DNA of 64,000 bases, from NCBI GenBank assembly GCA_047967505.1, contig CM106538.1; one strand, 5' to 3'. Source of the DNA: Dipteris shenzhenensis (lineage: Eukaryota). Shown here one piece after another: positions 26,901 to 64,000 of this stretch. The stretch's first letter is position 1; each line of letters starts with the position of its first letter. The notes beneath the pieces are model-generated. The model worked only from the letters and a program-made list of their open reading frames with translations, ran no database searches and had not been told where the DNA came from. Both the position numbers and the translations under genes were made by a program.

Positions 26901-27472
26901 TGCTAGGACAACTCAACACAGTCAAGACATCAAAGGAAGCATGGGATATGTTCATAGCTCTCTATGAGTCCAAGAACACATCCATGATTCTCACCCTGAG
27001 AAACTAGATCAACCAGAGTTTTCGCAACAGCAGTGAAACCATTCATGCTTATGTACTCCGCATAAAAGACTACAACAATCAACTTGCAGCAGTAGGAGAG
27101 ACTATGAACCTCATAGAAATGGTTCAAGTAATCCTGAATGGAGTAGGAGAGGGATACGAGAATCTAGTCCAAACTATTTTCATCCAATGGCTAATTCCAA
27201 CACTGAAAGAACTTCAGTCAGTTCTACTTGGTGAAGAACTCAGGAATCAGGCCATTCAAGCACGTAAAGGTCATTCTAATGATTAGGCATTCACACCTTT
27301 AGATAGAAGCAAAGGCAGAGGCAAAGGCAGAGGTAGATCATATAAAAAAAATGGTCATCATCAACAAAATCAGTCAGCATCAACATCAACATCAACATCA
27401 TCCTCAGCAACATCAGAATCAGCAAAGAGGAAATGATTCCAAGCGAGGAAGATTTCAAGGACGAGGGAATGC

Positions 27473-30400
27473 TATTGAGATATTGAGCTCCACTCATGAT
27501 ATGCCAGGGTGACCATTGTGCATTTATGTCATCGACTTGTTAGCTGCAGATGCAGTTGGTACACCGCCCATGAATAATAGCTGGATGACAGCTATCCTTA
27601 TGTACTCTAGTTCGTGACTCAATTAGTATGCCACCTTAGTTAGCTGAGTTTGGTTTGAGACCCACATATAGGGTTCTTCTATTTCTTTGTACTAGAGTTC
27701 TTTTGGCTTACACAACTAAGAAGAGGAAAACTGTTTTCAGCCTCCACCTTTGTGTGTATTCCCCCATTGTGTATGTGAGAAAGCCACAAGTGAGACTCCT
27801 TCCTTCTCTTCCACTATCTTCACATGGTATCAGAGCCTGGTTCATGGTAAGGAGCTCAAAAAAGCAAACCAAGTTTGCGGTGTCCTAGTAAGAGGACCAG
27901 TGTTGCTTTCCTTTTTCGAGTTTGGGAGCAAACCTCTGTAGGTAGCACAGCCAGAAAGTGCAAGAGTGCATTGTCTCAGATTGAGACACCCTTGGCGGTG
28001 TGGCGAGAGGGCAATATATGCTGCGGGACAATGCAAAGCCCTGGGTGACTTTATTTTTCTGATTCGAGGCCATTTGGGGCCTATTTTGGAGGCGGAAGTT
28101 CTCCGCAAGCACTGAGAAAAAGGCCCTGTTTTTGCTGTGCGACCACTGCTCTACAGGTCGGTGAAAAGTTGCCACGGAACCCCACAAAAATTGCATCGTA
28201 TGCCTATGCATCAAGACATTAGGAGTTGCAGAATCATCCTTATTGCCTATTGATGAAAAATCATCACTAGGAAGTGACTGTGTGGTCAAATACCACTTTC
28301 GTCAATTTTGCAAATTTTGCCCGTGTGAGGCAGAAGTTGTGTTTTTGGCAGTGATAGAATATTTTGCAGTGTTCTGTAATGGCGTCTGATTCTCTTTCAT
28401 AGATTGTCACTGAAAAGCTTGACAAGAACAACTTCCAAGCATGGAAGTTTAGAATGATGAATTTCCTTATGGGAAAAGGCTATTGGGAGTTCATTACAGG
28501 AAATGAAGAAGAACCAGTTCTTTTTAATGTTCCCAATCAACAGGAAATGCAGGCATTTAAAGGATGGCATGAGAGAGCCAAAAAAGTTATGTATTGGCTA
28601 TCTATCAGTATTTTGGATTCTATAATTGTGCATATTCAGGATGCAAGTACGCCAAATGAGGCATGGGATACTTTGGCAAAAATGTATAGCACAAATACGC
28701 AAGCCATGAAAATGCAGCTCAAGCAAGAGTTGCACAATGTGTAGAGAGAAAATATGAGCATTAATGACTACCACATGAAGGTGAAGAAAATTGTAGATGC
28801 ACTTGCTTCCATTGGGTCGCTAGTGGAAGATGATGATCTAGTTTCTGTGAGCTTGAATGGTCTAGGAAAGGATTATGCACAGTTTCGGACATCCATCGCC
28901 GTCCGTGAAAAATTTTCTGATTTTGAGGAGTTGTTTGCTCTTCTAATTTCTGAAGAGCTGAGAAATGGTGGTGCATCTTCTTCAGGAGGAACTTCAAAAG
29001 AAACTGTCTTCTACTCAAATGCTGGAAGAGGTAGAGGCAGAGGTAGAGTAGGCCACCAATCTGGAGGCCATGGTAAAAATCAGAATGTGTAGCAAACTCA
29101 AGAAAACCAGCCTATGGAGGAGGACGTGGTAACTCTAGAGATAGGGGGAACCAAAGAGGTCATGGTGGATGGCAGAGAGGCCAAAATGCAAACAGCAATG
29201 TTGAATGCTACTACTGTGGTAAAATGGGTCATATGGCTAAAGACTCTGCTACAAAAAGTAGAATGACATTATGAATGGAAAATTACAGCAAGGCAATTAT
29301 GCATCCTCTAGTAGACAGGGTGATGACAGAAATGAGCATTTATTTATGGTGCAGCACATGACCAATTCTGTGACAAGTACAGAAGAAAGCAATGATGTGT
29401 GGTATGTTGACTCAGGTGCGTCAAACCACATGACAGGTCATGCAAAATGGATGTAGGATGCAAGGAAAATAGAAAGACCAAGATTTGTGGAGATTGGTGA
29501 TGATACTACACACCCTATTGTGCAGATTGGTGATGATACTACCCATCCTTTGTCTATGTAGGATGGGAAAAAGAAATACCTGTCCGATGTATTTCATGTC
29601 CCGATTATCACCAAGAACCTAGTTTCTATTGGTCAAATGGTTGAGCAGGGCTTGCAGGTCAGATGTAATCCTCATGGATGCTTTGTTGAGGATATGAAAA
29701 ATAATGGTCGCTTGATAGCAAAAGGAAAGAAGAAGGGTAGGATGTTTACGTTGGATGCGGACATGCTTGAATTGAGTGTAACAATGTTTGCACATGGGAC
29801 CAGTGTAGTTGCAGATATTGATATCTGGCATAAACGCATTGGTCATGTTAATGTACAATGACTTAAATCAATGCAGGCCCAAAATATTGTTGCAGGATTG
29901 CCTAAATTCAAGGTTGCAGAAATGCATAAGGTATGTGAAGCCTGTCAATTCGGAAAATAGGCAAGGAAACCATTTCCTAGACATGTTCAAGAGAGTAAGA
30001 AGCCATTGGAATTAATCCACTCTGATGTGTGAACTACTAAACCTGCATCTATTGGAGGCTATCATTATTTTGTCACTTTTATTGATGACTACAGTAGAAA
30101 AGTTTGGGTGTATTTTATGAAAAAGAAAAGTGAAGTGTTTGGGCATTTCAAAGCTTTCAAAGCTATGGTTGAAAAAGAAACGGGCTTGCAAATAAAATGC
30201 CTAAGGTCAGATGGAGGGGGAGAGTACCTCTCAAATGAGTTTGCAAGGTTCCTATAGGAGCATGGCATAAAGCAGCAATATTCATGCAATCATACCCCAC
30301 AGCAAAATGGACTTGCAGAAAGGAAAAACAGGCATATTGGAGAGGTATCTCGGCCATGTTAAATGAAAAAGACCTACCAAATTATCATTGGATTGAAGCA

Positions 30401-33008
30401 GTTGCTACAGTAGTTTACATAATAAACAGGACTCCCACTGCAGCAATACTTGGCATGACACTAGAGGAGATGTATAATGGTAGAAAACTAGATATTTCTC
30501 ATTTGAAAATTTTTGGTTGCATTGCCTATCTTCATGTGCCAGATGAGTTGAGGTCCAAGTTGGATCCAAAAGCTGATAAGTGCATCTTTATTGGTTATTC
30601 TCTGCAGCAAAAATGGTATAGATGCTATAACCCTTCTACTTGTAAGTCTACAGTGAGCAGAGATGTTGTTTTTGATGAGATGAGCAGCTGGTATAAACTA
30701 GTAAATGTGATTGATGATGTAGATGCACAAAATGGTAATGCTACACAGAATTCATTGCAGCAATCACAAAATATTAGTGGACTTCCAGTGTCCTCTAGTA
30801 GTGGTTCACATACTTCACCATGGATAGGCAGATTGAGATCAGGAGAATCTCCTCAAAGCAATGCAGATAGTGGTATGCAGGTATCACGAAAAGGAAAAGA
30901 GAAGGTAGATCAGCCCATGTTTGATGTGAATGCAGGTCACTCTTATGTGGATGGTGAATCCAGTTGCTCAAAACAGAGCATTGATGATGAGTTGGGTATT
31001 CCTTCTCTTGTTACACCTGGAGTAAGGAAGACCAGGGATGTTTTGAGAGCTTTTGGAAATGAGCCTATTTTGTGCAGGTCTAGCAGAGCTAGAACCCACT
31101 TCTTTTGAGCAAGCCATGGGAAAAGAAAAGTGGGAGAAAGCCATGGATGAAGAAATGGATGCCATGGAAGCAAATGCTACATGGGAATTAGTGCCTTTGC
31201 CTAAAGACAAGAATGCACTTGGCTGTAAGTGGGTTTATAAGGTGAAGCACAATGCAGATGGTTCTATGAACAGATACAAGGAAAGATTAGTTGTCAAGGG
31301 TTATGTATAGACATATGGCATTAATTATGAAGAAACATTCAGTCCAGTTGCAAGGATGGCAACTGTAAGAGTAGTCATTGCTATGGCTACATCAAAGGGA
31401 TGGTCTTTACATCAGATGGATGTGAAGAATGCCTTCTTGCATGGTGATTTGCAAGAAGAGGTCTTTATGGAGCTGCCACCAGGTTATGTTCATGCTGTTC
31501 ATCCTAAGTTTGTTTGCAGGTTGAAGAAAGCCTTGTATGGCTTGAAGCAAGCACCTAGAGCATGGTCTGACAAGATAGGACAGTATCTTGTCACTATTGG
31601 CTTTCAGATTTCCAAGGTAGATTTCTCACTTTACGTGAGAAAAACAGAGAAAGGTATTATGCTGCTTGTCATTTATGTTGATGATTTGATCATTACAGGT
31701 GATAGTGATGAAGATATCCTTCATGTGAAAATGCTATTGAAGCAAAAGTTTGAGATGAAGGATTTGGTAGAGCTGTGTTATTTCTTGGGCATTGAGGTGA
31801 TTAGATCATCAAGTGGGATACGGCTCTTGCAGAGGCAGTATGGATTGGACATGTTGTCCAAATATGGGATGATAAACTGTAAGCCTATTTCAGTTCCTTT
31901 GGAGCAGAATGTGAAGCTGAGCGCAGATGCAAGTGAGCTTCTGGAAGACCCTACTATGTACAGACGCATAGTAGGAAGTTTGATTTATAAGACTATTACT
32001 AGGCAAGATTTGAGCTATGCTGTTGGATTGGTAAGTCAATTTATGCAGGCTCCAAGGAAACCGCATTTGGATGCGGCTAGATGCATACTCAGGTATGTGA
32101 AGTCCACATTGTAGTATGGACTATTTTGTGAGGCTGGGGTTCAGATACAATTGCATGGATACACTAATGCTGATTGGGCTAGTAGTATTTCTGATAGACG
32201 ATCTACCAGTTGATATGTGTTCTCTTTTGGGAGTGCTGCAGTCACTTGGAGGAGCAAGAAACAGCTTACAGCTGCCTTATCGAGCACAGAGGCTGAGTAC
32301 AGGGGTGCAACAATGGCTGCATGTGAGGTAGCTAGGTTGCATAAGCTACTTTATGATATGCATTAGTCTACAGATGGGCCAGTTATCATTTATTGTGACA
32401 ACATGAGCAGTATACACTTGGCATATACACTTGGCAAATAACGCAGTCTATCATGGTAGAACAAAGCACATTGAGGTGCATTATCACTATGTGTGGGAGA
32501 AGGTTTTACTAGGTCTTATTGATCCAGTTTATGTCAGCACATAGAATCAGGTAGCTGACATATTCACGAAGGCATTGGGCACAGAGAAATTGCACAAGTT
32601 TAGAGACCTGCTTGGTGTGCAGGAATTGGGATTGAGCTCATGGGGGAGTGTTGAGATATCGAGCTCCACTCATCCACTCATGATATGCCAGGGTGACCGT
32701 TGTGCATTTATGTCACTGACTTGTTAGCTGCAGATGCGGTTGGTACACCGCCCATGAATAATAGCTAGATGATAGCTATCCTTATGTACTCTAGTTCGTG
32801 GCTCAGTTAGTATGCCACCTTAGTTAGCTGAGTTTGGTTTGAGACCCACATATAGGGTTCTTCTATTTCTTTGTACTAGAGTTCTTTTGGCTTACACAAC
32901 TAAGAAGAGGAAAATTGTTTTTAGCCTCCACCTTTGTGTGTATTCCCCAATTGTGTATGTGAGAAAGCTGCAAGTGAGACTCCTTCCTTCTCTCCCACTA
33001 TCTTCACA
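27473..33008 (+). mobile_element. Ty1/copia F nested in the gag of E; full-length but decayed
   Basis: LTRs 27473-27824 and 32649-33008, TSD AATGC, PBS at 27825, PPT ggggga. Motifs WYVDSGAS, LRSDGGGEY, HQMDVKNAFL and IYVDDL. Confidence 0.96.
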
Positions 33009-36000
33009 AATGCATCCACCAATGTGTCAAACATTTAGTGCAACTACTATCAGAAGTTTGGACACTATGAAAGAGATCACCGCAAGAAGCAGTACGACCA
33101 AGGTGGTCAATCCAGTAGCAATCAAGGGAATTCCTAAGGCAAAGGAAATCATCATGGCGGACATTCTAGTCACAGTCATTTTGTAAATGAACATGGAAAT
33201 ATGTTTCTTGCAAGCGAGAAATTGCATCAGATTGATACAGTGTATCTAGACACTGATTTCAATCCCAAAGAGGATTACAGCTATCAAGTCGACCAAGTGG
33301 TATAGGATCCTTGGTACATCGATAGCGGTGCATCATCTCACATGAGATATCATCAGGAATGGTTCATAGAAATGAAACCATTAGAAGGACAGAAAATTGT
33401 CATCTACACAGCAGACAATACACTAAATCCGGTACAAGGGACAGGTGCTATCCCTATGAACAATTTCACTGGTATGAAAGGATTGGTCAAAGATGTTCTC
33501 TATGTTCCGAAGCTCAGCAAAAACCTCTTGTTAGTAGGTCAAATGACTAAACACAATTACAAAGTCATCTTCGATGGTGATGAATGCACTATCAGAGACA
33601 AATCCAAAAGATGTCAGCTAGTAGCAAAAGGTGTCAAGGAAGGATGCTTATACAGAATGCTAGCTATAGTACTAAATAAGCATGCCATGTCAGCTCAACT
33701 GCAACAAATGCCACTATCTGCAAAATGGTACAAGAGATATGGTCATGTCAACTTCAAGTACTTGTTAGATCTCAGGAATCAGAATATGGCAATTGGGATT
33801 CTGAAGCTATAGTTTCTTGGAAAAGTTTGTGAAGCATGCTACTTCGGCAAACAAAAGCGAACCAACTTTGTCAGAAGTACCTCTCGTGCATGAGGTATTC
33901 TTGATTTGATACATACAGATGTATGGGGTTATGCCTAGACCCGCAACATCAATGGTTCACTTTACTACTTGACTTTCATCGACAACTACAATAGATATTG
34001 TTGGGTCTACTTTTTGAGAGAGAAATCTAAAGTGTTTTTTAGATTTCAAGAATTCAAAGCCATGGTAGAAAACTAGACAGGCAGAAAGATTAAGGTCATG
34101 AGATCAGATAGAGGAGGTGAATACATGTCTTCAGCATTCATGAACTTTTGCAAAAGTCACGGCAGTCGAAGACAATTCACATGTGCAGATACTCCTTCGC
34201 AGAATGCAAGAGCTGAAAGGAAGAATGGAACTTTAGTAGATAGTGCTAGAGAAATGCTTAGTGAAAAGCATCTTCCAAATCAGTATTGGGTAGAAGCAAT
34301 AGCTACAGCAAACTACTTGCTTAATCAGCTTCCTACCAAATGGATACAAGTTATGACTCCTTATAAAGCATTCAGTGGACACAAGCCACACATTGGGCAT
34401 CTCCGCATATTTGGTTGCATAGCATATGCCCACATACATGATGATCATCGTAGGAAATTGGATGTGAAGTCACGTAAATGCATCATGCTTGGCTACAGTG
34501 AAGAAAGCAAAGCATACAAATTTTATGATCGCATCAACCGCAAAATCATTATCTCCAAAGATGTAATCTTTGATGAGGAATCAGAATGGAAAACCTCACC
34601 TACACAGGAGATAGAGGCATTGACTTCACAGTCATCTACAGAATAGGTTGATGAAGAAGAGCAAGAATTGACAGCAACACCCCAAGCAGAGCCACATCAG
34701 CTCAGACGGTCTACTAGGGAAAGCAGACCTCCAGCCAGATTGACATATGCTCAGAAAGGCAAAGCAATTCAGGTGGAAACCACCAATTATGCTCTTATGA
34801 CTACCATCATGGCTACAGAAGAGCTAGTGTACTTCAAAGATGCAGTAGACAAGCCAGAATGGCAAATTGCTATGAATGAAGAAATGGATGCTTTGTATAA
34901 GAATAATACTTGGGAATTATGCGACCTTCCACTAGGAAAGAAGGCCATAGCAAACAAATGGGTATACAAAGTGAAGTACAATCCAGATGGCAGTATTCAA
35001 AGATATAAATCCAGATTAGTTGCAAAAGAATTTGCACAACAATATGGTTAGGACTATGATGAGACTTATGCTCCAGTAGCAAAGATGGATTCCATATGGT
35101 TCTTGATATCACTAGCGACACTCAGTAAATGGAATGTGTATCAGCTCGATGTCAAGAATGCATTTCTCAATGGTTATCTAGACGAGGAAGTCTACATGCA
35201 ATAACCAGCAGGTTATGTTGAACTAGGAAAGGAGAATAAGGTTTGCCATCTCAAGAAAAGTCACTATAGCTTAAAACAAGCACCCAGAAGTTGGTATAGC
35301 AGAATCAACAAGTATTTTGCTGATCTGGGATACATGAAGTCCAATGCAGATCATACTCTCTACTTCAAAGTTCAAGGAGAAGACATTACTATTGCACTTT
35401 TGTACGTAGATGATCTGATTGTGATAGGAAGTAAGGATAGCTTCATCAAAAAATTGAAACAAGAATTATTTGTAGAGTTTGACATGACAGATCTTGGACT
35501 TATGCACTATTAACTTGGAATTGAGTTCTGGAGAGATTCAAATAGCACATTCATGAGTCAGCTCAAGTATGTTGACAGTCTCCTGAAGAAGTTTCATATG
35601 GCAGATTGCAAGATTGCAGCCACTCCCATGGAACAGAGTTTGAAACTTACTAAAGATTCAAAAAAGCCTACATTCAATGACAGATACTACAAGTAGCTCA
35701 TCGGATCTCTTATATATCTAACATTCACACGGCTAGATATTTGTTACGCAGTAAGCTCACTAGCATAGTTTATGGCAAATCCAAAACAGTCTCACTGGAA
35801 TGCAGCCAAAAGAGCCTTGAGATACATCAGAGGTACAAGACAGTTTAGGATAGAATACAGAGGAAGTCATCCATGGTTGCATAGATACTGTGATAGTGAC
35901 TATGCTGGAGATCATGAGACCAGGAGATCGACACAGGGATATGCATTTTTCCTTAGTCAAGATGCTATATCATGGTTGTCAAAAACAAACAGCCAACTGT

Positions 36001-36316
36001 TTCTTTGTCTTCGACTGAAGAAAAATATAGAGAACTCACTACAGTTGCATGTGAGGCTATATGGCTCAGAAGACTATTGTCAAAAATAGATTACTTTGAT
36101 GAGTCTAAGCCAACAACAATATACTATGATAATCAATCGGCTCAAGCATTGGCCAAAAATCTAGTATATCACTCCAGGACAAGCACATTGATGTCAGAGA
36201 GCACTTCATCAGAGAAAGAGTGTTACTTGGCGACATCACACTGCAGCATTGTGATAGCAAAGAGAATGTTGCAGACATCTTTACCAAACCACTCGGTAAA
36301 GAGCTATTCGAGAAAC

Positions 36317-37012
36317 TGTTAGAATCCAAGAGCATGTGCCTAGCGTGCCCCCCGCCAAGACCGCTAGCACCTCATGGAAGTGCACAACCTTCATGGCCAC
36401 TATGGAGGCTCTGGCATGTGTGTATGGCAGGTCCCCACCCCTGCCATAAGGCACCCTTGCCTAGCCAGCCCTCCAACCTCCACAAAAGGCAAGCTTGGGG
36501 GAATTGAAGATAGGAGGGGCAACTTGGACTATTTATGTCCCTTCATCTTCCACACACCTTTGTATGTGGGATAATTCAACCCTTTCTCCTTCTTCTTATC
36601 CCCTTTGTCCATGAGAGATTTGCACCTCCAACACCCCCCTCCAATCGATCATGGAGAGAGGTGGCCGGGGATCAGACCCGGGGGCTCTGATACCATGTTA
36701 GAATCCAAGAGCATGTGCCTAGCGTGCCCCCCGCCAAGATCGCTAGCACCTCACGGAAGTGCACAACCTTCATCGCCACTACGGAGGCTCTGGCATGTGT
36801 GTATGGCAGGTCCCCACCCCTGCCATAAGGCACCCTTGCCTAGCCAGCCCTCCAACCTCCACAAAAGGCAAGCTTGGGGGAATTGAAGATAGGAGGGGCA
36901 ACTTGGACTATTTATGTCCCTTGATCTTCCACACACCTTTGTATGTGGGATAATTCAACCCTTTCTCCTTCTTCTTATCCCCTTTGTCCATGAGAGATTT
37001 GCACCTCCAACA
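36317..37012 (-). mobile_element. TRIM (terminal-repeat retrotransposon in miniature)
   Basis: Two 317-bp LTRs (36317-36633 and 36696-37012). The 62-bp interior holds little beyond the PBS (TGGTATCAGAGC, minus strand) and the PPT. TSD GAAAC. Confidence 0.95.
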
Positions 37013-37423
37013 GAAACACCGACTAGCTCTTGGTTTGATGCAGAGGAAGGACATTCTCATTAAAGGGGTGTGATGGAATGTAATGCTCAGTCCTTCTTTG
37101 ATTCCCCAGAATCATCATCTTGAGGGAAGACATACTTCATGATGTTGATCTTGAGAGAAGGTGTTGAGAGTTCACGCTCAACATCATGTGATCATGTGTG
37201 CATAGCACCATCATGTGATCATATGTGCATAGCACTAACCTTATAGAGTGCTATAAAGGAAAGGGTTAGATCCCCTAACCCTAACCCTAAAAGGGTTTGT
37301 ATATGTTCTATTTTTTCAACTAAATCTAGTGTACAATTAGTCATTTGTGGTGTACTCTCTAGCTGTGCCCTCTCTCCTCATCTCCACTCTTCTCCTCTCC
37401 CCTCTTCATATTTTGTCAAAGTC

Positions 37424-38826: not shown

Positions 38827-39215
38827 CCACCTTGAGGGCCAGCAGACCCTCTTTATCACTAGAGAGGATCTGCTGGGGGGAGAAAGATGTGATGCCAAAA
38901 ATTGATATTTTTTATTTGGCATTGGTATTGTTTTCTTCTATGTTTGATAAGAGTTTGAGTATCAAGTGATAGCCTAGCGGCTCTCACTTATTTTTATTTT
39001 CTAAGATATTCTATGGAATTGAGAGGATGAGTGGAATGGATCATTGTAAAATACCATAGGTATGAATTATAAATACCTTGGTATGGGGTGAGAGTTATTT
39101 GTGTATGGGATATTATAGGGTTTTTAGAAAATAGGAAGAGTGAGTCACGTAAAGAGGTGGGCTCATGTCCATGTGCTCCAATAATATAATAGATGCCACA
39201 TGCCAAGCGTGTGGA

Positions 39216-42200
39216 TCTCTGTTTGATGTAGTGCAAGGCGTCGGGTCTCATCTAACTTCTCAAGTTGTACCAATCTGGCCTCTACATGTTCATCTTCTAT
39301 CATCCTTTGTTCCTGTGCCAATCTCAAGGCTGGAATCTCTATCTCTAGTGGTAAAACTGCCTCAGTACCATACACCAACTCAAAAGGGGTGTGACCTGTA
39401 GATGTTTTATGAGTGATGTTGTAAGCCCACACTACTTCAGTGACCTTCTGATCCCATTGGCTCCTATTCCCTGCGGCCATTTTTCCCATGGTTTTACAAA
39501 GGAGGCCATTGGTCCGCTCTGTTTGACCCATGGATGCTAGATAATAGATGCTAGAAGTGTGATGATCAATGCCCATGCGATCCATGAGTAACTCCACTGC
39601 TTCATTTAAGAATGGACTCCCATGGTCAGAGACTATCTCCATGGGTGTCCCAAACCTTGTGCAGATACGTTCAAAGATGAAATTTGAAACTACCTTGCCA
39701 TTTGCAGCAGAGAGGGCGATAGCTTCAGCCCACTTAGTGACATACTGAGTGGCTACCAAAAGATACTTCTTTTTGCAGGCAGTCATGGGCAAGGGCCCGA
39801 CAAAATCTATTCCCCACTTCTGAAACGGATGGATGGACATCACTGGGTGATGTTGCCCGGGACGCAAATCTTTCTTACCGAAGAATTGACATGGTTCACA
39901 GGTTTTGCAATACAAAGTGACATCCTTGAACAAGGTCGGCCAATAGTATCCAGCATGTAAAATCTTCTTAGCTGTATAGTCACTGGCATAGTGGCCTCCA
40001 CAAAATCCATCATGATAATGCTTCAATACCTTAGGCACTTCATCTGCATCAATGGCCCGTCTGAGTACCCCATCCATGCCTTGACGGTACAACACCCCAT
40101 CAAGGAGGGTGTAGCGTCTACTATCTCTGTGGATCTTCTTTCTCTCATAGCTTGTACTTCCTGAAGGAAAGGAGAAAGCGGCCAAAAACTTGTAGATACC
40201 ACCATACCAAGGATCCCCAACTTCTATGGCTGCTACAAGGGTTACATCAAGGCACTCCTCTAAATCAATCAAAGCATTCTTCAAGTTGGACTAACCCCCT
40301 TTTACAATTTTGAAAGAAAAATCATATTCTTGTAGAACTGCCAACCATTTGGCCAACCGGCCCATGGGATTTGGTGATTGAAGAACCTGCTTTGCAAGAC
40401 CAGTGCCAATTTGTATAAAGAAGGACTTTCCAGCCACATAATGCTTAAATTTCTCAATGCAAAACACCAAAGACAATGCATGCTTGTCAGCCTCTGAATA
40501 GCGTCACTCAGTGTCGAGCAATTGTCGAGAAGCAAATCGAACGGGGTACATGAACCGATCCTCCCCTTGCTGGAGAAGAATACCTGCCAGAGTGTGCTCT
40601 CCAAACCCAGGATTGATATAGAAGGTCTTTGACCAGTCTGGATTGCGTAGAATGGGTTCTGAAGCCAGAGCCTTCTTGATTTGTGCAAACCCATGATCAC
40701 AATCCTCATCCCAAGAGAAATCAACCCCATCTTTTAATAGCATAGTCATGGGCCATGTCAAAGTAGCATACTGATCAATGAAGCAGTGATAGTATCCTGC
40801 TAGATTGACAAATGAGCGTACCTGACGTTTGGTTGTAGGTGGGGAGAGTTTGAGGATGGCTTCTACCTTCTCAGGGTCACGGTTGATGCCCTCGGATGAG
40901 ACAACATGTCCCAATAACCTCCCTTGAGTGGCTCCAATGGTGCATTTCTCAGGGTTGAGACTGCCATTTGCATCATTGACCCTTTGGAAGGCCAATCTAA
41001 CCTTCATGATGTGCTCCTTACGTGATGAGAATATACAGAAATCATCTAAAAACACCTCCAAGAAATCCCCCAAATAAGGAGAAAACACCATCTGCATAAA
41101 TCTTTGAAAGGTGGCAGGAGCATTGGTGAGGCCAAATGGCATTACTTTGAATGCAAATGTCCCCCAGGGTGTGGCAAATGTGGTTTTAAGCACATCTTCC
41201 TCGGCAATTCTGATTTGATAAAACCCAGAGTAACCATCACAGAAAGTATACATCTCATGACCACTTACCTTCTCAAGAATGAGGTCTTGAAAGGGTAGAG
41301 GATGATGATCCCTCTTGGTGGCAGCATTGAGCTTCTTATAGTCGCGATGCAGACCCGCCACTTGTTGTTTTTCTTTGGGATGACTACCACTGGTGAAACC
41401 CATTCAGTATTGTGAACCGGAACAATAAACCCAGCCTCTATAAGCTTCTGCAACTCTGAGTGCAAAGCGTCGCTCTGTAGGGGCCCTAATCTTCGATACT
41501 TCTGAGCCACAGGCTTTGCATCAGGCTTCAGCTCTATCTTGTGCTCTATGGCAGTCACATGGCGAAGGTGGTGGTAGCTAGTTGCAAAGAGGTCAGGGAA
41601 ATCTTTGAACATTTCAAGAAACTCATCTTTCTCACCTGGAGTGAGGTCTGGAGAAAGCATTGATTCGAGCTGTTGAGGACTAGCTGTTATCTTTTTTGCA
41701 GGTGGCAGGGTCGGAGACACCCCCATCATGTAAATTTCCTCCTCTGAGAATTCGTCCCCCCCGTCTGATTTTTCCATGGACTCAGACACTGAAGATGAGA
41801 TAGTATCACTGTCATGCTTCTCTTCTTCTTCCAGTTCCATGGCACCAGGTTGCATAGGGATTTTCTCCTTGGAAGCACCAAAAGACATGTGTCCTGTCTT
41901 CCAATAGCTGACTGCATCACTTTTTCTCAACCATGGTCTCCCCAGTATGGCTGGGTAACTTCTGCCTGTATCTTCAATGTCCACTACATAGAAATTGATA
42001 GTGGTGGTCAACCCGTTGACAGTGATGGGCAAATCCTCAATGACTCCCATGGTGGCGAGTCGTCGACCATCTGCTACCTTGATTCGAGTGGAGGAACACC
42101 TTGTACATTTCAAATTCAATTTCTTCATGATGTGGGGCACCATGATATTACATGCAGCTCCCCCATCAACACACACATTTTTGACATGGCAATTATCTAT

Positions 42201-43586
42201 GATGACATCTACTGTGTGTGGGTGCCGATCAATTTCTTCAGAGATAGAAGATACCTCTCGTACCTTTCTCTTTTTCTTGCTCTTCCTTGTTGAGAGACCT
42301 TGCTGTATCTCACGTCTCACCTTAGGGCTTAATGCTATTAGTTGAGGGAGTGTGATGCTCAAAGACCGATGAGCAAGGTCCTGAACGACCGAATAGTCCT
42401 CTTGCCCTGAGCCGATGGGAAAATCCGAGGGTGACCACTTACTCCTGCGAGATCTTTTAGTCTTCTCTGTTGGTGGGTCTGCCATCTCAGCATCTGAGGG
42501 CTTTGAGAAGGACACCTTCTTCTTGGGGTGGCCCGTTCCACGGTTTGGAGAGGGGTCCGAGGTAGCACGAGTTCTTTTCCCGAGATCAAGGATCTCCACA
42601 TCAGAATCCTCAGTGCCCGACTCACTTAGAAGATTCACCCTTGGAATATTGGGGCATTCTGTGCGATAATGACCCTTCTGGTGGCACTCGTAGCATACAA
42701 CATTAGCACGATCTCTTGGAGGGCAGTTGGCTTGATTTCTGATGCCCACCATCTCAAGCCGAAGATCATTCAGGGCCTTGGCTAAGTCATTGACTCCAGG
42801 TTCGGTTGCAAGGGGGGCCTCTTTAGTTGGAGGGGCCATGGGAGTAGAGAGGAGGGGGGATCATGGGCGAGGCTGGGGAAATCTTCGAGGCGGAGGATGA
42901 GGATATCCACCTTGTTGAGGGTAAGCATCTAAGGGAGGACCATACATCTGAGGTGGAGGCGGTGGATACATCCTTGATGAGGGGTGGGGGTATGCCCCTG
43001 AGTTAGACCCCCCAGGTTGTTGTTGCAGGAATGGAGGGGGATGCGGAGGGACAATCGTCTTCTTTGAGGCGGGGTCAGACTGAACTTTATCAAACTTTTG
43101 AGCAATCTCATGTGCTAGCACCATAGTTTTAGGATTCTCCCATTTAAGCTTGAGGCGGAATTCATCACTCGCTCCTGCTACAAGGTAGCCCAGCACATGC
43201 TGAGTCATTCCAGCTTGAAACCCGGCATTGTCCTCCTGTGTGGCAATCAAACGGTCCAGGAGCACGGCCGCTCGATCCACATATCGACGCGCCATCTCAC
43301 CTTCTAACTGCTTCAAATTTGCCACCTGTAGGTACACATTCTCCGGCTCCTCTTCTTTGCCGAAATACTCAATCATTGCTGCTATCAACCTTGGCCAGCT
43401 TTGGCGAACATCTTCGGCTTGCTTCTCATACCACACTTGAGCCAAACCTTCTAGAAATGTGGGAAGAACCAATAGCCATCTATCTTCAGTAAGAAAGTTG
43501 AGAGAAACACAACGGCGCTTGAAAGCCACAAGATACTCATTTGGATTTTCTTCTACCCGTCCACAAAACACGAGAATGTCAGCCAT
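39216..43586 (-). pseudogene. gag-pol: Gypsy D gag-pol (gag-PR-RT-degenerate RH-INT), with few lesions
   Basis: ORFs 42861..43586, 41265..42839, 40504..41403, 40291..40476 and 39163..40284. Motifs CYECHQKGHYRTEC, VDGGAACN, FLDDF and WGIDFVGPLP. No aRH between RH and INT. Confidence 0.93.
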
Positions 43587-43801
43587 GCTTGGAAGATGGA
43601 AAAGAGGGGCTTATCTATGGACGAACAATAGTAAGAGGAAGCTTGAACTGAAAATCGGGTGAAGATACATCCAAAAAGCACACATAGGCAGGGTAGGGTG
43701 TGACTGGTGTAGTGTGAAATATTACACGAGAAGAATCTTCAGCATAGAATAGCACATAGACAATCTTAAAAGGACCAACCCTCATGATATCACATCGATC
43801 A

Positions 43802-43966
43802 TTACAAGCGAGGGTTAGAGGCACAGCGTTGCATGAGGTTGTTCATCAAGGCAAACAAGAATACCATGACAAATGTCAACAGTTGGAGAGCTTGCACATC
43901 ACCTTCAGCTTCTTCCAGTTCTTGTAGTCGCCATGCTGTTTCTTCAAGGGGTGTGCGGTCTGGCAT
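43802..43966 (-). CDS. 54-aa micro-ORF upstream of gag, homolog of 19111-19260
   Basis: MPDRTPLEETAWRLQELEEAEGDVQALQLLTFVMVFLFALMNNLMQRCASNPRL*. Confidence 0.75.
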   Translation of the reverse strand: MPDRTPLEETAWRLQELEEAEGDVQALQLLTFVMVFLFALMNNLMQRCASNPRL

Positions 43967-44079
43967 TCTTCTTTTGAGCAATGTCCTTGAGAACCCTCCT
44001 GATGATCTGCCGAAGTCGGTAAACTCATATCAAGTATGCCCAACACTTAGTTTCATGATGACCACAACCTCTGCATTCC

Positions 44080-44544
44080 TTACAAATGATCACCCTCCTT
44101 CGTGGCTTGCGGCTTTGTTGGGGTGGCGCTTCCACTCGCGTCATGCGTGATTGGAGTACAAGCTTCACGTGCCAAGAAATCAGCAACTAGATTTTGAGCT
44201 CGAGGGATATGCTGAATTTTTACCTCTTCAAATTGGTTGCAAAGTTCCAAGGCTTGTTGATGTCGTGGAACCAAGCCTTTGCTCCGCACCTTCCACCTTC
44301 CACTAACTTGTTCACATACTAGTTGAGAATCTCCTTGCACCTCCAATTGCTTGGCATGATGTTCTTGTGCCTTTTGTAGCCCAAAGATGAGCGCCGAGTA
44401 CTCAGCTTGATTGCAAGTACTTGCGGGTGAAGACTTGCTGTAACAATACTCCTCACCACCCGGTGAAGTGAGCTTCACACCCATGCCAGCCGCCTTGGTC
44501 GAAGGTTTGTAAGCTCCATCAAATTGAAGAATCCAAGATGTCAT
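44080..44544 (-). CDS. Free-standing archaeal-type RNase HI (aRH)
   Basis: MTSWILQFDGA...CNQAEY...VQGDSQLV...HIPRAQNLVADFLA, with all four acidic catalytic positions present. A CCHC knuckle follows in another frame (44090-44025). Confidence 0.9.
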   Translation of the reverse strand: MTSWILQFDGAYKPSTKAAGMGVKLTSPGGEEYCYSKSSPASTCNQAEYSALIFGLQKAQEHHAKQLEVQGDSQLVCEQVSGRWKVRSKGLVPRHQQALELCNQFEEVKIQHIPRAQNLVADFLAREACTPITHDASGSATPTKPQATKEGDHL

Positions 44545-45383
44545 CACACCAAAACTAAAATTCGGACATCCCAAGTTTCTCGGTAGTCCAAGATAGGTAG
44601 GAGGAGAGGGTGGGGAGAATTCAACACTTGAGCCAAACGTTCAGCACCAAATAAACTTGCAATCCTTTGTTGATAGTTTATCTTAAGACCAAAAAGAATT
44701 ACAATTTGAAGCTCGAAATGAGGCACAAAAGGCTGATTAGGTATAAATGGATTCCTTGGTCAAAACATTACCAACCATAGTCGAGGCCTAGAAACCTTTG
44801 TAATGAGATTGTGAATAAACCATTCAGGATGAGCTTTTCCACAGGAATCAACAAGCAGATGCGCCAAATCTCCCCCCAAGCTTGGGGAGCATCCCACCCT
44901 TCGATGAAGGATACCGTTTTAATTATATCTGAAGTAGCAAGTAGTTCGATCACCGCACAATGAGTAGAAGTAAGTAAAAATCCTCCCAGCGTATCAGTAG
45001 TTCGTCACCATGAATCATCCATGGTGTATCATTCCACCCATCATCACCATCAATAATGCACTGGACAATCAGCCGTTGAAGGTCGACATGAAGATCAAGG
45101 AAGACATCTCGTGCATTGGTAGCCGTAAGGTGCAGAGGAACAGGCACCAATTCCTTAAACGCGTCGAGAAGTGACATAAATGTCCACCCTTCTTGTGAGG
45201 CGTGTGTCCATGAAGTGAGCTTGGAGAAGTTCTGAATTGGCAATCTAGCAAGAGATGTGGATAGAGCACATAAAATGAAATATTTTTGCTTTTTACAACA
45301 AGAGCAAACTCCTTACGGTTAGAGAGTTACAGCTCCCGTGATTTCAATATATGAACAAAAATCATTACATTTTTACCACTTCC

Positions 45384-50190: not shown

Positions 50191-50279
50191 TGATGTTGTG
50201 TTTGTAGTTTTTGTTGATTATACACCAATTTGTGACTTATTACTTAAGTGGCATTTACTGATGATATTTACAAAATTAT

Positions 50280-50709
50280 TTCATGCACACAATTTTATGA
50301 TATGAATGTGTGATGATGTGATTATTTGGAAATAAATCCTTGTGTGATGAGAATTTTGATATGAATATGTGATGATGTAATATTTGTAATATATTTCTTC
50401 ATGCACACAATTTTATGATATGAATGTGTGATGATGTGATTATTTGGAAATAAATCCTTGTGTGATGAGAATTTTGATATGAATATGTGATGATGTAATA
50501 TTTGTAATATATTTCTTCATGCACACAATTTTATGATACGAATGTGTGATGATGTGATTATTTGGAAATAAATCCTTGTGTGATGAGAATTTTGATATGA
50601 ATATGTGATGATGTAATATTTGTAATATATTTCTTCATGCACACAATTTTATGATATGAATGTGTGATGATGTGATTATTTGGAAATAAATCCGTGTGAT
50701 GAGAATTTT
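50280..50709. repeat. 118-bp tandem repeat, about 3.6 nearly identical copies
   Basis: Unit starts (tcatgcacacaattttatgata) at 50281, 50399, 50517 and 50635. Confidence 0.95.
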
Positions 50710-52439: not shown

Positions 52440-54443
52440 TAAATTTTATAGGATGAGACTCATGTATCACAAAAACTAGATAAATAAACTATCCCTTATC
52501 TAGAATGAACATTTGTCATATTCATTATAATAATCTTTTCCTTGTTGCAAGCCTATTCCATTGCACATTGCATCTTGATTCCCACAATGTAAACATTATG
52601 TATTTCTTGTGAACATCAAATAACTTGAGTTTATGTATCATAAGACATGGATATCCTAGAACAACAGTATAGGTTTCCAATATCCAAGCATTTCTACACA
52701 TAATACATGAGCTTATTGATTGCATTTTTTATAAGAACCAATCTCTCATAAACTCACTAAGAAATAAATAAAACTATTTTGGCAACCAAGTAGAAGGGAA
52801 AAATAAAACTATTTTGGCAACCAAATAGAAGGATTTATTTTAAATATTGAATCAATTCACTAGCTCGGAGCTCCGTATGAAGTATTGAAACTTTTTAGTT
52901 CTCCAGCTTGGTGATCTTGTATACTTATGTTCTTTAAAGTATTGAAAAAGTTTGAAATGGAAAAAAACAATCAAATATTAAGACCACCCAATAGAAAAAA
53001 TGTCCCTAAGTGAAATATCCTATTGTTATCCTCTTTTAGGCTATGTATAGCTTCTATATGAGACTTTAAGGTCCCTCATGGTAGTTCCTCTTTTTTGTGT
53101 CATTACTTGCATGATACTTGGAAATGCTTATGCAAATAAACTAATATCCCTAGATTGATCAAACCAATATCCTACATGAATGTTTGAAGTCTTTAACATA
53201 ACATTTGAAGTCCCACATACAAGAACTTTAGGACTCCCATATAGGGGTTGATCAATATTCCACATGAAACATTTGAAGTCCTAAACATGATATTTAAAGT
53301 CCCACATACGAGTTTAGAAGCCCACCATGGAAGTGAATCAACATCTCGCATGGAATATTTGATTTTTGAAATGGGATATTTAAAGTCCCTTGTAGGAGTT
53401 TGGTGGTCCCTTATGGAATTTGAAGTCTCCCATGGGAGTTTTAAGGTTCCTTATGGGATTTAAAGTCCTTTGTCAGAATTTTCTAGCCTGTTATGGGATT
53501 CGAAGTACCACATTGGAGTTTTAAGGGTCTCTTGTAGGCTTTGATCCATGTCTCACAAGGGAATTTAAGCCACATTTAGGAGTTTAGGATCCCTTATAGG
53601 ATTCAAAATCCCACATAGGAGTTTTGGAGTCCCTATTGAGATTTTATCCATGTCCCATAAGGGATTTGAATGCCATATAGGAGTTCAGGGTCCTTAAGGT
53701 ATCAGATCCATGTACGACAAGGGATTTGTAAAGTCCCATGTGCAAGATAGCAAGTTTTTATGTAAATTTCTTTGACATGATATGAAATTACATTTCTAAA
53801 GAATTAATTTGAGATTTATGAACTTAAATAGTATGTAAGAGTTTTTTTTAATAAAAACCATGTAGAAAAAACCTGGGTTATAGTAGCATCTTAAGTCCAT
53901 TTGATATGATGCTATTGCACAATAGCTCTAATGATACTAGCAACATTGATGCAATAAAGGAAGCTATACAGAGATGACGGATTTCTAAAAATTTTGTTGT
54001 GGTGAGAACTATGTTGCGATCAATGAGCATGTGTGTCAGTCCACATCATCATGTCCCACTTGTCAATTTGATTCTAGTGATGCTACGATTGATTAAAGAA
54101 TGGAGGACTACATTTATAGAAAATATATTTGGTTATGAAAACATATGTATTTGATTCTATTATTGCAAGGTACAAGGTGACACCCACATTGTCCAAAATT
54201 GCCACCAATGGTTAAGGTTCTTACAAATTATCGATGCTTTTTTTTACTCTTTTTTTTCCAGATGCAATATCGACTCTAATATCAACATTTGCTAGAGTAT
54301 TATTAATGCCCATACTGATGGTAATATATACCATAATAATATGGATGAATGTAACTATTGCATTAATGTCGATGATATGGTCTTGAGAAAAAACCTGAAG
54401 AAAAAGCATTCATAGGAAACATTGATATTGGTGTCCACGATAG

Positions 54444-54497
<54 letters not shown>

Positions 54498-55051
54498 CTT
54501 CAATTGTTATACGAGGAATCTCTTGGTCATAAATTAACCATTATAAGAAAAGAAAAGAAGAAAGCCACTTATTGACAAATGAAATAGACAATGTCCAAGA
54601 TGAGATGCTTTCTATTGTAGCTATTTCAAGATGATATGATTATTAACAATATAAATCAAGAGATTCGACATTTGGTATAAAAGAATTTTATTATGTTTGT
54701 TAATTTCACAATACTATTAAATAATGTGCAATTTTTTAATTCCAATTATGTTCATAGTATGGACATCAAGTTGTTTGTGATAAAAGATGGGGAAATCAAT
54801 TATTGGGAAGGGAGCCATACCAGAGAACATTTTAAGGGCAGGCTACAAGAGTAGGTAGGGCCTTTGTTACATGTTTAACTATCATCAAAAGTTGGAGAAA
54901 CTCTTCAGTAGCTAAGATATAAGAAATTTTGGGTGGAGGATGGTCCACCTAATAGGAGACAATGAGCAAGGGAGTTAATTGGATGGCTAGACAATCTAAT
55001 GGCCCATGTGATGCCTTCCAAAGAGGAACTAATAATTAGCTAGCATGTTTA
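52440..55051. repeat. ~2.6-kb segmental duplication, copy 1
   Basis: Nearly identical to 59181-61813. Paired ORFs in the track: 52525/59258, 53248/59993 and 54221/60967. Confidence 0.97.
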
Positions 55052-56740
55052 TGTGAAGATAGTGGGAGAGAGGGAAGGAGTCTCACTTGAGGCTTTCTCA
55101 CAAGCACAATGGGGGAATACACACAAAGGTGGAGGCTGAAAACAGTTTTCCTCTTCTTAGTTGTGAAAGCCAAAAGAACTCAAGTACAAAGAAATAGAAG
55201 AACCGTATATGTGGGTCTCAAACCAAACTCAACTAACTAAGGTGGCATACCAACTGAGCCACGAACTAGTGTAGATAAGGATAGCTATCATCCAGCTATT
55301 ATTCGTGGGCGGTGTACCAACCGCATCTCCAGCTAACAAGTCAGTGACATAAATACACAATGGTCACCCTGGCATATCGCAAGTGGAGCTCGATATCTCA
55401 ACACTCCCCCTCGAGCTCAATCCCAATTCCTGCACACCAAGCAGGTCTCTAAACTTGCGCAGCTTCTCTGCGCCCAATGCCTTCGTGAATATGTCAGCTA
55501 CCTGATCCTCTGTGCTGACATAAACTAGATCAATAAGACCTAGTAGAACCTTCTCCCACACATAGTGATAATGCACCTCAATGTGCTTTGTTCTAGCATG
55601 AAAGACTGGGTTCTTTGCCAAGTGTATGCTGCTCATGTTGTCACAATAAATGACAACTGGCCCATCTGTAGACTGATGCATATCATAGAGTAGCTTATGC
55701 AACCAAGCTACCTCACATGCAGCCATTGCTGCACCCCTGTACTCAGCCTTTGTGCTCGACAAGGCAACTGTAGGCTGTTTCTTACTGCTCCAAGTGACTG
55801 TAGCACTCCCAAAAGAGAACACATATCCACTGGTAGATTGTCTATCAGAAATACTACCAGCCCAATCAGCATCAGTGTATCCATGCAACTGTATCTGAAC
55901 CCCAGCCTCATAAAATAGTCCATACTGCAATGTGGACTTCACATACCTGAGTATGCATCTAGCCGCATCCAAATGCAGTTTCCTTGGAGCCTGCATAAAC
56001 TGACTTACCAACCCAACAGCATAGCTCAAATCTGGCCTGGTAATAGTCATGTAAATCAAACTTCCTACAGCATGTCCAGTCCATACTGCCTCTGCAAGAG
56101 CTATATCCCACTTGGTGATCTAATCACCTCAATGCCCAAGAAATAACGCAGCTCTCCCAAATCCTTTATCTCAAACTTCTGCCTCAATAGCATTTTCACA
56201 TGAAGGATATCTTCATCACTATTACCTGTGATGATCAAATCATCAACATAAATGACAAGCAGCATAATCCCTTTCTCTGTTTTTCTCACATAGAGTGAGA
56301 AATCTGCCTTGGAAATCTGAAAGCCAATAGTGACAAGATACTGTCCTATCTTGTCAGACCATGCTCTAGGTGCTTGCTTCAAGCCATACAAGGCTTTCTT
56401 TAACCTGCAAACAAACTCAGGATGAATAGCATGAATATAACCTACTGGCTGCTCCATAAAGACCTCTTCTTGCAAATCACCATGCAAGAAGGCATTCTTT
56501 ACATCCATTTGATGTAAATACCATCCCTTTGATGCGGCCATAGCAATGCCTGCTCTTACGGTTGCCATCCTTGCAACCGGGCTGAAAGTTTCTTCATAAT
56601 TAATGCCATATGTCTGTGCATACCCCTTGACAACTAATCTTGCCTTGTATCTATTCACAGAACCATCTGCATTGTGCTTGATCTTATAAACCCACTTACA
56701 GCCAATTGCATTCTTGTCTTTAGGCAAAGGCACCAATTCC
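55052..56740 (-). mobile_element. Ty1/copia G (family of F): 3' LTR plus RT-RNase H only
   Basis: LTR 55052-55403 is the reverse complement of the F LTR, with the PPT adjacent. ORFs 56101..56742 and 55364..56059, with a small deletion near 56068. Confidence 0.93.
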
Positions 56741-57309
56741 ACTCTATTTGCTCCATACTCAAAGTGAATATGTCATCCACTAGAAGAAGAGGATCACCAA
56801 AACATCTGTCATATTTGCCTTCATGTGTATGAGGTTTCTTTCGACCAACACACAACTCTTCCATTGGAATATTTTCAAGCATTAGAGGTGCAAGTCAATG
56901 TAGTCAATAGGTCAGGTAGGATTTTTATCTAGGGGGATAGGAACTCGAGCAAATTGCCTTAGTTGTTCCACATTCACCCCTTCAGGTACTCAGTGGCATC
57001 TTTCTCCATCAGAAGCATGGCACTCTTCTTGTTTGTTGATTCTTTGGCCATCTGCAGTGGCTACTCTTCTTCAGTCATACCTTTCTCGATGACTAGATTC
57101 TTCGTGAAAATCAGTTGAGAATTAAAGTAGTCTTTCTCTTTGTTGATTGGTGTGGTCCTCATGTTCATTTGGATGATCCAAAGAGGAAATGGCCAACCAT
57201 TTGAAATCCAAACCCTTTATAGAAGAATGCTCAGACTCCACTTGCCATGAGAGTCATGGCGAACTTCAGACAAGATAGCCAAGCAAGTGCTTCAGATACC
57301 GTATCTTCT

Positions 57310-57520
57310 CTCCTCACAGTTGGATTATTGTGGAACCACACACGAAATCTATGAAGTTGATTTCAGACGATTTAGTATTTTCATTCTTGATGTAAAATGG
57401 TTTAGAACTATTTACAACGGTCCCCATGCAACAGTGAGAAAAGACAGCAGCGATTTCTTTGCAATAGACTCCACCAAACTTTGGACCGATGAAAGTGATA
57501 CTTTTAATTTGTTCTTCCCG
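57310..57520 (+). pseudogene. CACTA/En-Spm transposase C-terminal (DUF4216-like) fragment
   Basis: DYCGTTHEIYEVDFRRFSIFILDVKWF...DSSDFFAIDSTKLW resembles the YG.I.EI.ELD...KWF pattern. Confidence 0.6.
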
Positions 57521-57522
57521 AG

Positions 57523-57692
57523 AACTAAGGTGGCATACTAACTGAGCCACAAACTAGAGTAGATAAGGATAGCTGTCATCCAGCTATTATTCGTGGGCGG
57601 TGTACCAACCGCATCTCCAGCTTAACAAGTCGGTGACATAAATACACAACGGTCACCCTGGCATATCGCGAGTGGAGCTCGATATCTCAACA
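57523..57692 (-). mobile_element. Partial LTR of the F/G copia family
   Basis: Matches 55235-55403 and ends ...gatatctcaaca. Confidence 0.9.
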
Positions 57693-58339
57693 ACATGTAC
57701 TTAAGCATAATTTCATATATATAATTGATGGCATTTGGCACCCATCTTCAATATAGGTGGTTTTTCTTCCGGATCATTCTGATCCAAGATGGTGGTACAT
57801 GATCCAAGTTGCACCATGAAGTAAGCAAAATTTTGAAAATAGAGATGTGGATATGGAGATGCCAATACCAATGCCAGATCCAATTCATCCAGATGAGTCT
57901 AGCGAAGAAGATGAAGATCACAATATGAGCCAAGAGGAAGATGTGCATAATGACATCATATGGGAGGAAGATGGAGATCATGATATTAAGGAAGAAGACG
58001 AAAATCATCAAGAATCACCACACTTTATTAAAGAAGATGATCAAGTACTCTTAGGTGAATGTACGATGATGATATAGGAGATCAACTCGGTATAGAGTTA
58101 GAGATAGACTTGTTTGGCATGTTAGACTTGGTTCAAGATGAAACGGTTGATGTAAATGCTCTTCATTGAATTTTTTCATCTCAAACTTAGACATGAGTAT
58201 AGGTGCTTCAAAGGCTTGATGTATATGCTCTCATACTTTTATTCTCTCAAAGGATCAAACATGTATGAAAATATAAAAAAATTTGTCATTGGAAAAAACT
58301 ATATTTTAAGGTTGGTATGGGAAAAAAAACTCTTTGTAA

Positions 58340-58567
58340 AATGTCGCTATAAAAAACTATCTCAGTGTCGCTATATAACGACCATTACCAATCTGATAAA
58401 AGTCGCTATATAGCAACTTTAGGCAAATGTCGCTATATAGTGACATTTTACTAAAGTTGCTATATAGTGAGTCTTAACAAACCCCACTTCCAATACTGAC
58501 GATTAGCGCCCCGCGCATGCTAAATGTCGATACTTAAGCATCGCAATAGGATCCGTGTGTAGTAGTG
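58340..58567. mobile_element. CACTA element terminus with subterminal repeats
   Basis: Ends gtagtagtg (reverse complement CACTACTAC). It is preceded by about 5 copies of gtcgctata. Confidence 0.75.
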
Positions 58568-59180
58568 GTAGTGGGACGAGCGATCCACCTTTAGACGATG
58601 ATTTTGTAGTAATTTAGAAAAGCATTGTAACAAAGAGGAGGGAAGAGAGTGACATTGCGAGTTCACACTCTCCCTCTCACCTAGCTTGCTAGGTTAGGAA
58701 GCCTATCACTGAGTCTTCATTGAAAGCTAAGGTGGCTTGGTTGTATCAATTCCTTCAATATATACAAATGTAGTTTCCTTTTCTCTATCAATGGTGTGTA
58801 TACTCAATGGAGTGTTGAGTTTCTAACTATTAGTTACTAAGTTCTCCTATCATCATATACTTTCTCCATCGATTCCATAACAAACCGACCTCTATTATCT
58901 CAACACCTACCTTCTACACTCAAAACTTTTAGCTACAACCTACAACATACTCACATCAAGGCAAATGAGAACCCATGAACTATCATACTTTGGGTCTAAA
59001 ATGCCATTATGAGAGAGTAATTGCTAAGAAATTGAAATGAACCCTATAGATGATGACAAATAATGTGATGTAATGTAATCATGAGAAGTATTTCCATCAT
59101 AGTAGCTAAAATATGATTTTATTTTTAATAATTGAACTTATAGTACAATAAATTGCATTGTGCATTTGATTTCACCATAT

Positions 59181-61199: not shown

Positions 61200-61259
<60 letters not shown>

Positions 61260-62671: not shown

Positions 62672-62756
62672 CTGCAAGATCCTAGGTTAGCTTTGTATTG
62701 GCCAGATTTATGTGTGAGTAGTAAGTTATTATACGTTAAGAAGCAAAGCAACTCAC

Positions 62757-62939: not shown

Positions 62940-63036
62940 CTGCCCACCACACAGATACCCACATCTTTACCTATTCATCTAGAGTATATACACAATCAAT
63001 CAAACCAAAGCAAGAGAAACCAATTAGACCACGTAC

Positions 63037-63955: not shown

Positions 63956-64000
63956 CTGCAGGCCATCACACCCAGATATTTACTTCCATTCGTCCAAAAC

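Follow-up and report, generated by a model that had tools for sequence, protein, structure and literature searches.

The question raised by this locus is whether a very short open reading frame (ORF) standing in front of gag in two Ty3/gypsy elements of Dipteris shenzhenensis is a gene and, if it is, what its product might do. In what follows, the window is the whole stretch of DNA that was analysed, 64,000 nucleotides long, and the two elements are called C and D. Their small ORFs are these:

43802-43966, minus strand: the small ORF in D (54 codons and a stop), with 15 relatives that are 70-93% identical
19111-19260, plus strand: the small ORF in C (49 codons and a stop), whose nearest database relative is P0016 (64% identity)

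Translation of both frames bears out the initial annotation of this DNA in its positions and reading (54 amino acids in D, 49 in C) and also in its alignment of the two peptides, which runs without gaps over the first 47 codons and holds 25 identical residues. At 15 of these 25 shared residues the two copies use different codons, and all five of the codon pairs that had been pointed out are among them. When each peptide was searched against the window by tblastn, the other copy was recovered at an E value of about 3e-13, and the next best match had an E value of 0.09 or worse. The nucleotide alignment of the ORF pair scores z=13.7 relative to shuffled sequences, whereas the flanking leader segments of C and D score between z -0.7 and 0.6 each and are unalignable. 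The match between the two small ORFs is therefore well above chance, and the small ORF is an island of conservation within the leader. Both of its shifted sense frames contain stops in C and in D, and any ORF of at least 45 amino acids on the opposite strand of C shares no more than a few bases with it.

Within this island, selection has worked on the encoded peptide and not on the RNA. Over the 47 aligned codons, C and D differ at 21 first, 11 second and 29 third positions (chi-square p=9e-4), such that identity is 77% at second codon positions, 38% at third positions and 57% for nucleotides overall. The Nei-Gojobori method gives a pN of 0.35 and a pS of 0.74, a value at which synonymous sites are saturated, and the resulting estimate of dN/dS is that of the single pair C and D. 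Shuffling of the alignment columns produced a mean of 13.5 identical amino acids compared with the 25 observed, and none of 5000 shuffles reached 25. Protein-level selection follows from these results taken together: the codon-position pattern, the lower pN, the shuffles, the different codons used for shared residues and the unalignable flanks. Purifying selection on a small accessory protein, as had been proposed from the sequence alone, is thus supported.

Judged by their domain content, C and D are both Tat-type members of Ty3/gypsy, because each has the extra, archaeal-type RNase H (Pfam RVT_3) that is the mark of the Tat clade. The Pfam matches lie at 44080-44640 in D (E 1.2e-26) and at 23376-23984 in C (E 5.6e-10). 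Neither Pfam nor tblastx found an RNase H domain between the reverse transcriptase and the integrase of D. The parts of the two elements that surround the small ORFs are as follows, and a further leader ORF, ORF-X, is described below:

17065-18985, plus strand: 5' LTR of C, with a TGTG start and a CACA end
18991-19006, plus strand: primer-binding-site-like motif of C, 16 bases from TGG, lying 5 nt beyond the LTR and 105 nt ahead of the small ORF
19665-23984, plus strand: gag-pol of C up to and including the extra RNase H within pol (23376-23984), with stops and frame breaks
38888-39215, plus strand: 3' LTR remnant of C, 95.4% identical to 17065-17392 and cut off where D begins
39163-42860, minus strand: protease, reverse transcriptase, RNase H and integrase of D, with a frame break in the reverse transcriptase and a truncated 3' end
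42861-43586, minus strand: gag of D, with 215 nt between the small-ORF stop and its ATG
44080-44544, minus strand: separate archaeal-type RNase H ORF of D, 154 amino acids, between ORF-X and the small ORF

The 5' LTR of C starts with matching sequence to the 3' LTR remnant, which begins at 38888 behind a purine tract (38875-38887), and the end of the 5' LTR was inferred from its inverted termini and from the adjoining primer-binding-like motif. This motif has one exact match in the window, and a 41-nt stretch around it is 88% identical to L001, a relative of C on a metagenome contig, although the leader of L001 is otherwise unalignable. We take the motif to be the primer-binding site of C, presumably complementary to the 3' end of a cytosolic alanine tRNA. 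The TGG sites of D include no convincing candidate for a primer-binding site, and no tRNA genes were found in the window or in the metagenome loci. The order of parts in C is ORF-X (in the LTR), primer-binding site, 105 nt, small ORF, 405 nt and gag. In D, it is ORF-X, RNase H ORF, 113 nt, small ORF, 215 nt and gag.

Both copies in the window are dead elements. The gag-pol of C is interrupted by nested copia elements, and its gag, which starts at 19665, meets an in-frame stop early on and changes frame further along, as read from the sequence and from tblastx frames. Because of this damage, the N-termini of the two gag proteins had appeared to differ when the locus was first annotated. That claim is refuted by L001, whose gag matches the gag of D from the first residue (37% over 110 amino acids, E 7e-18), and so the N-termini are homologous. 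Element D is without a 3' LTR, and its integrase frame continues directly into the truncated 3' LTR of C (about 39163-39215), and therefore C and D have been joined by deletion or rearrangement. Two Tat layouts adjoin in the window (17065-39215 and 39163-44768), one with the extra RNase H in pol (C) and the other with the RNase H in a separate ORF before gag (D).

A collection of 5.8 billion proteins contains 15 relatives of the D peptide, at the identities given above, of which 11 are exactly 54 amino acids long and the others 45, 55, 68 and 81. One cluster of this family has eight members (seven of them with 54 amino acids), and one identical sequence occurs on 13 contigs. The intact length of these database relatives is biased and is no evidence of selection, because the hits are predicted ORFs. 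Many of the substitutions in the D family turn Arg into His, Cys, Gln or Trp, which is the kind of change expected from CpG decay of dead copies. A full HMMER pass with the C peptide over 1.84 billion representatives returned two proteins, namely a member of the D family and P0016, a protein of 52 amino acids that constitutes a third lineage of the small ORF.

The limits of the ORF are conserved in these three lineages (the D family, C and P0016), which have the start methionine in common and a stop that falls three to eight residues past the hydrophobic helix. Their common pattern consists of RTP-[LI]-EE, ELE, GD-x-QA and a hydrophobic segment, about 20 residues long, that includes FAL-x-N-x-L; the short C-terminal tail after this segment varies between lineages in both sequence and length. 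The existence of a third lineage with the same start and the same architecture adds support to the proposal of purifying selection.

No known domain was recognized: Pfam has no family for the small ORF at an E value of 0.01 or better, and for P0016 it gave just two chance-level rows (E 0.1 and 0.25). A search of the ESM Atlas with the small ORF gave no usable match. For DNA copies of the small ORF, there were 272 pattern matches among JGI metagenome contigs and 114 in IMG/VR, with none confirmed in either set. A metagenome scan based on reverse transcriptase produced 554 relatives, from which 80 loci were kept. L001 alone is close, and the small-ORF HMM had no match among the six-frame ORFs of these 80 loci (best E 0.45). 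The metagenome locus L002 has a differing layout, with an ORF of 467 amino acids before gag. Contigs of sequencing run X8 extend over part of the region, and for these an origin from RNA is indistinguishable from an origin from DNA.

What kind of peptide is being conserved can be judged in part from its predicted architecture. AlphaFold2, given an alignment of 15 sequences, models the small peptide as two helices at residues 6-21 and 24-50 with a break at a Gly-Asp pair (mean pLDDT 79.6, pTM 0.47). The first helix is acidic, and the N-terminal 24-25 residues have a net charge of -3 to -6. In the second helix the maximum of Kyte-Doolittle hydropathy over 19 residues is 1.91 for D, 2.55 for C and 2.06 for P0016, and the hydrophobic helix takes up approximately residues 26-45 of the 49-54 present. 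There are one to four Arg or Lys residues in the tail (four in P0016, three in P0003, two in the window copy of D and one in C). The hydrophobic segment of P0016 also contains one Arg and one His.

The charged helical N-terminus and hydrophobic C-terminal part described at the outset are consistent with these two modelled helices and with hydropathy maxima of 1.9-2.55, and the membrane anchoring suggested at the same time is a prediction only. We read the small peptide as a predicted single-pass membrane peptide, which would be either tail-anchored or oriented with its N-terminus outside, the membrane segment having been called purely from hydropathy and composition. The asymmetry of charge between the N-terminal part (-3 to -6) and the basic tail would fit a topology with the N-terminus out and the C-terminus in.

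The small ORF is not the only conserved coding segment in these leaders. A tblastx comparison of C and D reveals one further conserved block, ORF-X, at 18606-18830 in C and 44768-44544 in D:

44544-44768, minus strand: ORF-X of D, 74 codons long and interrupted at codon 3 by a single in-frame stop
18606-18830, plus strand: ORF-X of C, 74 codons long and interrupted at codon 12 by a single in-frame stop; in the 5' LTR, 155 nt before its end
855-1079 of L001: ORF-X of L001, intact

ORF-X, the RNase H ORF of D and the insect precedent discussed below were all absent from the initial annotation. In C, D and L001, ORF-X has kept its start and its stop (codon 75) and is free of indels. Pairwise differences among the three at codon positions 1/2/3 are 29/18/50, 36/22/48 and 36/21/45, and pN is 0.31-0.40 compared with a pS of 0.71-0.91. 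Three database proteins have ORF-X intact, and their cluster has 34 members (74 amino acids in 10 of the 15 members listed). ORF-X is more widely kept than the small ORF. Pfam gave no PMD or transposase-28 match for ORF-X, the ESM Atlas returned only unnamed matches below threshold, and the AlphaFold2 model is uninterpretable (pLDDT 46). In D, the ORF-X stop codon overlaps the start codon of the RNase H ORF by one base (44542-44546, minus strand), an arrangement typical of termination-reinitiation coupling.

The contig region L001 (1-4530), which is 68% identical to C in nucleotides over gag-pol, has ORF-X (HMM E 1.3e-17) and the same primer-binding motif as C, and the small-ORF profile found no match in it. 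The gag ATG of L001 lies about 88 nt past the primer-binding motif, in a place and start context like those of the small ORF in C. Because it is without the extra RNase H and most of the integrase, L001 is a derivative that arose by deletion. Copies free of the small ORF therefore exist, but the autonomy of an element that is without it does not follow. A contig of run X3, from a diverged relative, matches in turn the last part of ORF-X, the beginning of the small ORF and gag, and skips the RNase H ORF (joint 43966 to 44553). Relatives that are without RNase H at that place therefore exist in the data of another organism.

Given this evidence, we favour with moderate confidence the view that the small ORF is a protein-coding accessory gene in one branch of Tat-type elements: it lies in the RNA leader, behind the primer-binding site and ahead of gag, its product would be a trans-acting membrane peptide made from the full-length RNA, and its presence would also lower gag translation. 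The small ORF would belong to a leader set together with the 74 codons of ORF-X, and it would be translated from full-length element RNA. The peptide might then insert into a host membrane and act in trans, for example by taking particles or element RNA to membranes or to cell-cell contacts. As an upstream ORF (uORF), it may in addition damp the translation of gag. The small ORF is preceded by five AUGs in C (counted from the primer-binding motif) and by three in D (counted in the spacer), and between six (D) and twelve (C) further AUGs come before gag. Plain scanning through leaders this crowded would therefore serve neither the small ORF nor gag well, and the AUG load favours shunting, reinitiation or internal entry over scanning.

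An alternative is that the small ORF functions exclusively in cis as a conserved-peptide uORF, in which the nascent peptide stalls or releases ribosomes and thereby sets the output of gag-pol (and in D also that of RNase H), with no role for the free peptide. We consider this unlikely, if still worth keeping in view. The small ORF resembles regulatory uORFs in that it sits in the leader of the RNA for gag-pol and is conserved at the level of the peptide, a leader full of AUGs suggests regulated or non-linear initiation, and the defective relative L001 manages without the small ORF. However, in examples from plants, stalling peptides are most strongly conserved at the C-terminal end beside the stop. 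This feature is absent from the small peptide, in which conservation extends over residues 1-46 and fades in the last three to eight residues beside the stop, which vary across lineages. Moreover, stalling would not need a two-helix design, amphipathic and then hydrophobic, with an asymmetry of charge.

It is improbable, in our judgement, that the small ORF supplies only part of a larger product, being either spliced or recoded to ORF-X, the RNase H ORF or gag, or left over as a remnant of a larger, ancestral Ogre-like ORF before gag. ORF-X and the small ORF are conserved together in C and D, with the frame of the small ORF one base further along in both, and Tat elements of seed plants can have larger additional ORFs in front of gag, according to the available part of PMC4408406. 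Nevertheless, in three lineages ORF-X is free of indels and retains both a separate start and a separate stop (codon 75), and the small ORF likewise has its own ATG in three lineages. In C, the end of the LTR and the primer-binding motif separate ORF-X from the small ORF. In D, an entire RNase H ORF intervenes, and the spacers are unequal in length and unalignable. The initial annotation had allowed that the peptide could turn out to be a fragment of a longer ORF, but longer relatives are limited to one domain-free read-through of 152 amino acids among 7999 candidates scored, which is weak evidence on this point. A check by eye of the C and D sequences revealed no splice junction that would consistently connect the small ORF to gag in frame.

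Retroelement leaders carry packaging, dimerisation and shunt signals in the region where the small ORF sits, but it is very improbable that the ORF is a nucleic-acid signal of this sort with an incidental open frame, given identities of 38% at third positions versus 77% at second positions and 57% for nucleotides overall, and an excess of frame-specific amino acid identity that was unmatched in 5000 column shuffles.

Among published systems, the one that comes closest is the pair sORF1/sORF2, which lies before gag in the Drosophila MDG1 group (412, Mdg1, Stalker and Blood; bioRxiv 10.1101/2025.03.14.642691). As described in the available part of that preprint, sORF2 is a FAST-like membrane protein of about 70 amino acids with a basic stretch after the membrane segment, the sORFs have low dN/dS, and some family members have lost one of the two. 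The screen for sORF2 in the same source looked for a sense ORF before gag of 60-210 amino acids with a single transmembrane segment by both TMHMM and Phobius and an N-out/C-in topology. It also looked for a myristoylation motif, MGxxxS/T, and for at least three Lys or Arg residues within 15 residues past the membrane segment (bioRxiv 10.1101/2025.03.14.642691).

Insofar as the available part of the preprint permits the comparison, the likeness is one of arrangement. Both systems have two small sense ORFs before gag in a Metaviridae element without env, the second ORF is short and helical, with a hydrophobic segment followed by basic residues (predicted in the plant case), dN/dS is low, and one ORF is lost in some members. 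There is, however, no demonstrable sequence similarity. The position and orientation of the plant ORF are those sought in the screen, its topology is plausibly the same, and the basic stretch is present in part, although the plant tail after the hydrophobic helix has only four to nine residues. At 49, 52 and 54 amino acids, the plant peptides are shorter than the range of 60-210 used in that screen. They also have no MGxxxS/T motif: none of the 17 aligned sequences starts with MG, whereas 13 start with MP and the rest with ML, MS, MA or MI. Because length and myristoylation differ and the other properties agree in part, we do not file the small ORF as a member of sORF2, which it resembles in outline only. 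The two systems differ further in that the first plant ORF, ORF-X, lies inside the LTR (in element C), and in that the host is a walled plant cell, for which cell-cell fusion is no obvious route.

Extra ORFs of plant Tat, Ogre and Retand elements were reportedly described by Steinbauerova in 2011. The small ORF is like them in being an additional sense ORF upstream of gag within the Tat clade. Those ORFs, as far as the available accounts go, are large and show similarity to a plant-mobile-domain or to transposase-28, whereas Pfam finds nothing for the small ORF, for ORF-X or for the read-through. In its available part, the review PMC7264820 treats the larger extra ORFs of plant elements, and PMC4408406, likewise as available, describes early Tat lineages and moss Tat-like elements as apparently without extra ORFs.

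A separate extra RNase H ORF before gag has been described as the 'pre-capsid' Tat layout, or structure 4 (PMC10508981, PMC13468544, available parts). As defined there, element D has exactly this layout, and element C has the 'retroviral' one. The available parts of these two papers describe the order of domains and leave the small ORF and ORF-X unmentioned. The available part of PMC10508981 also reports the 'pre-capsid' layout only from mosses and one clubmoss, and the layout with RNase H in pol not from mosses. The occurrence of both layouts in the window would accordingly suit a non-seed plant as the host. Our full-text literature searches brought up no account of a conserved small ORF in the leaders of plant Tat elements, and the supplements of Tat papers may list relevant structures.

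Among cellular proteins, the predicted peptide has the design of tail-anchored membrane proteins, with one hydrophobic helix within about 30 residues of the C-terminus, a short basic tail and no signal-like segment at the N-terminus, which is acidic. The likeness is one of design only, there being no homology, and insertion of the peptide is a prediction.

The small ORF is a real feature that is conserved as a protein, and within the reach of our literature searches it has not been described. Together with ORF-X, we regard it as a plant variant of the small accessory ORFs before gag that have so far been shown only in insect Metaviridae. Little is understood of the accessory genes that plant LTR retrotransposons carry, and those that are known are large ORFs. 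An ORF of the present kind, kept by selection between the primer-binding site and gag, is missed by routine annotation because its size is below the usual ORF cut-offs. The small ORF offers a concrete candidate for how plant retroelements without env reach the germ line, a question newly opened by the insect sORF2 work. A bolder proposal, which we treat as a long shot, is that early-branching plant Tat elements have a two-gene leader cassette, consisting of an LTR-encoded protein of 74 residues and a membrane peptide of about 50 residues, that is the counterpart of MDG1 sORF1/sORF2 by convergence or very old descent. Such a cassette might move particles or RNA between cells, for example via plasmodesmata towards gamete-forming cells. 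If true, it would represent an envelope-free transmission route for retroelements in plants. The presence of ORF-X in the LTR of C and the overlap in D between ORF-X and the RNase H ORF raise the further question of how three or four ORFs would be translated from one retroelement RNA.

Elsewhere in the window, at 52459-61507, a pair of direct repeats, 98-100% identical and about 6.7 kb apart, stands around a copia-type reverse transcriptase (56101-56772) and looks like a young Ty1/copia insertion. More nested copia elements are present at 1-16000 and 24000-37400. At its edge (62039-63999, minus strand) are three pieces of ORF that were assigned to the family of OPT oligopeptide transporters (E 1e-15 to 1e-29), probably exons of a host gene. 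A tandem array with a period of 118 bp occupies 50264-50709, its units being 95-99% identical.
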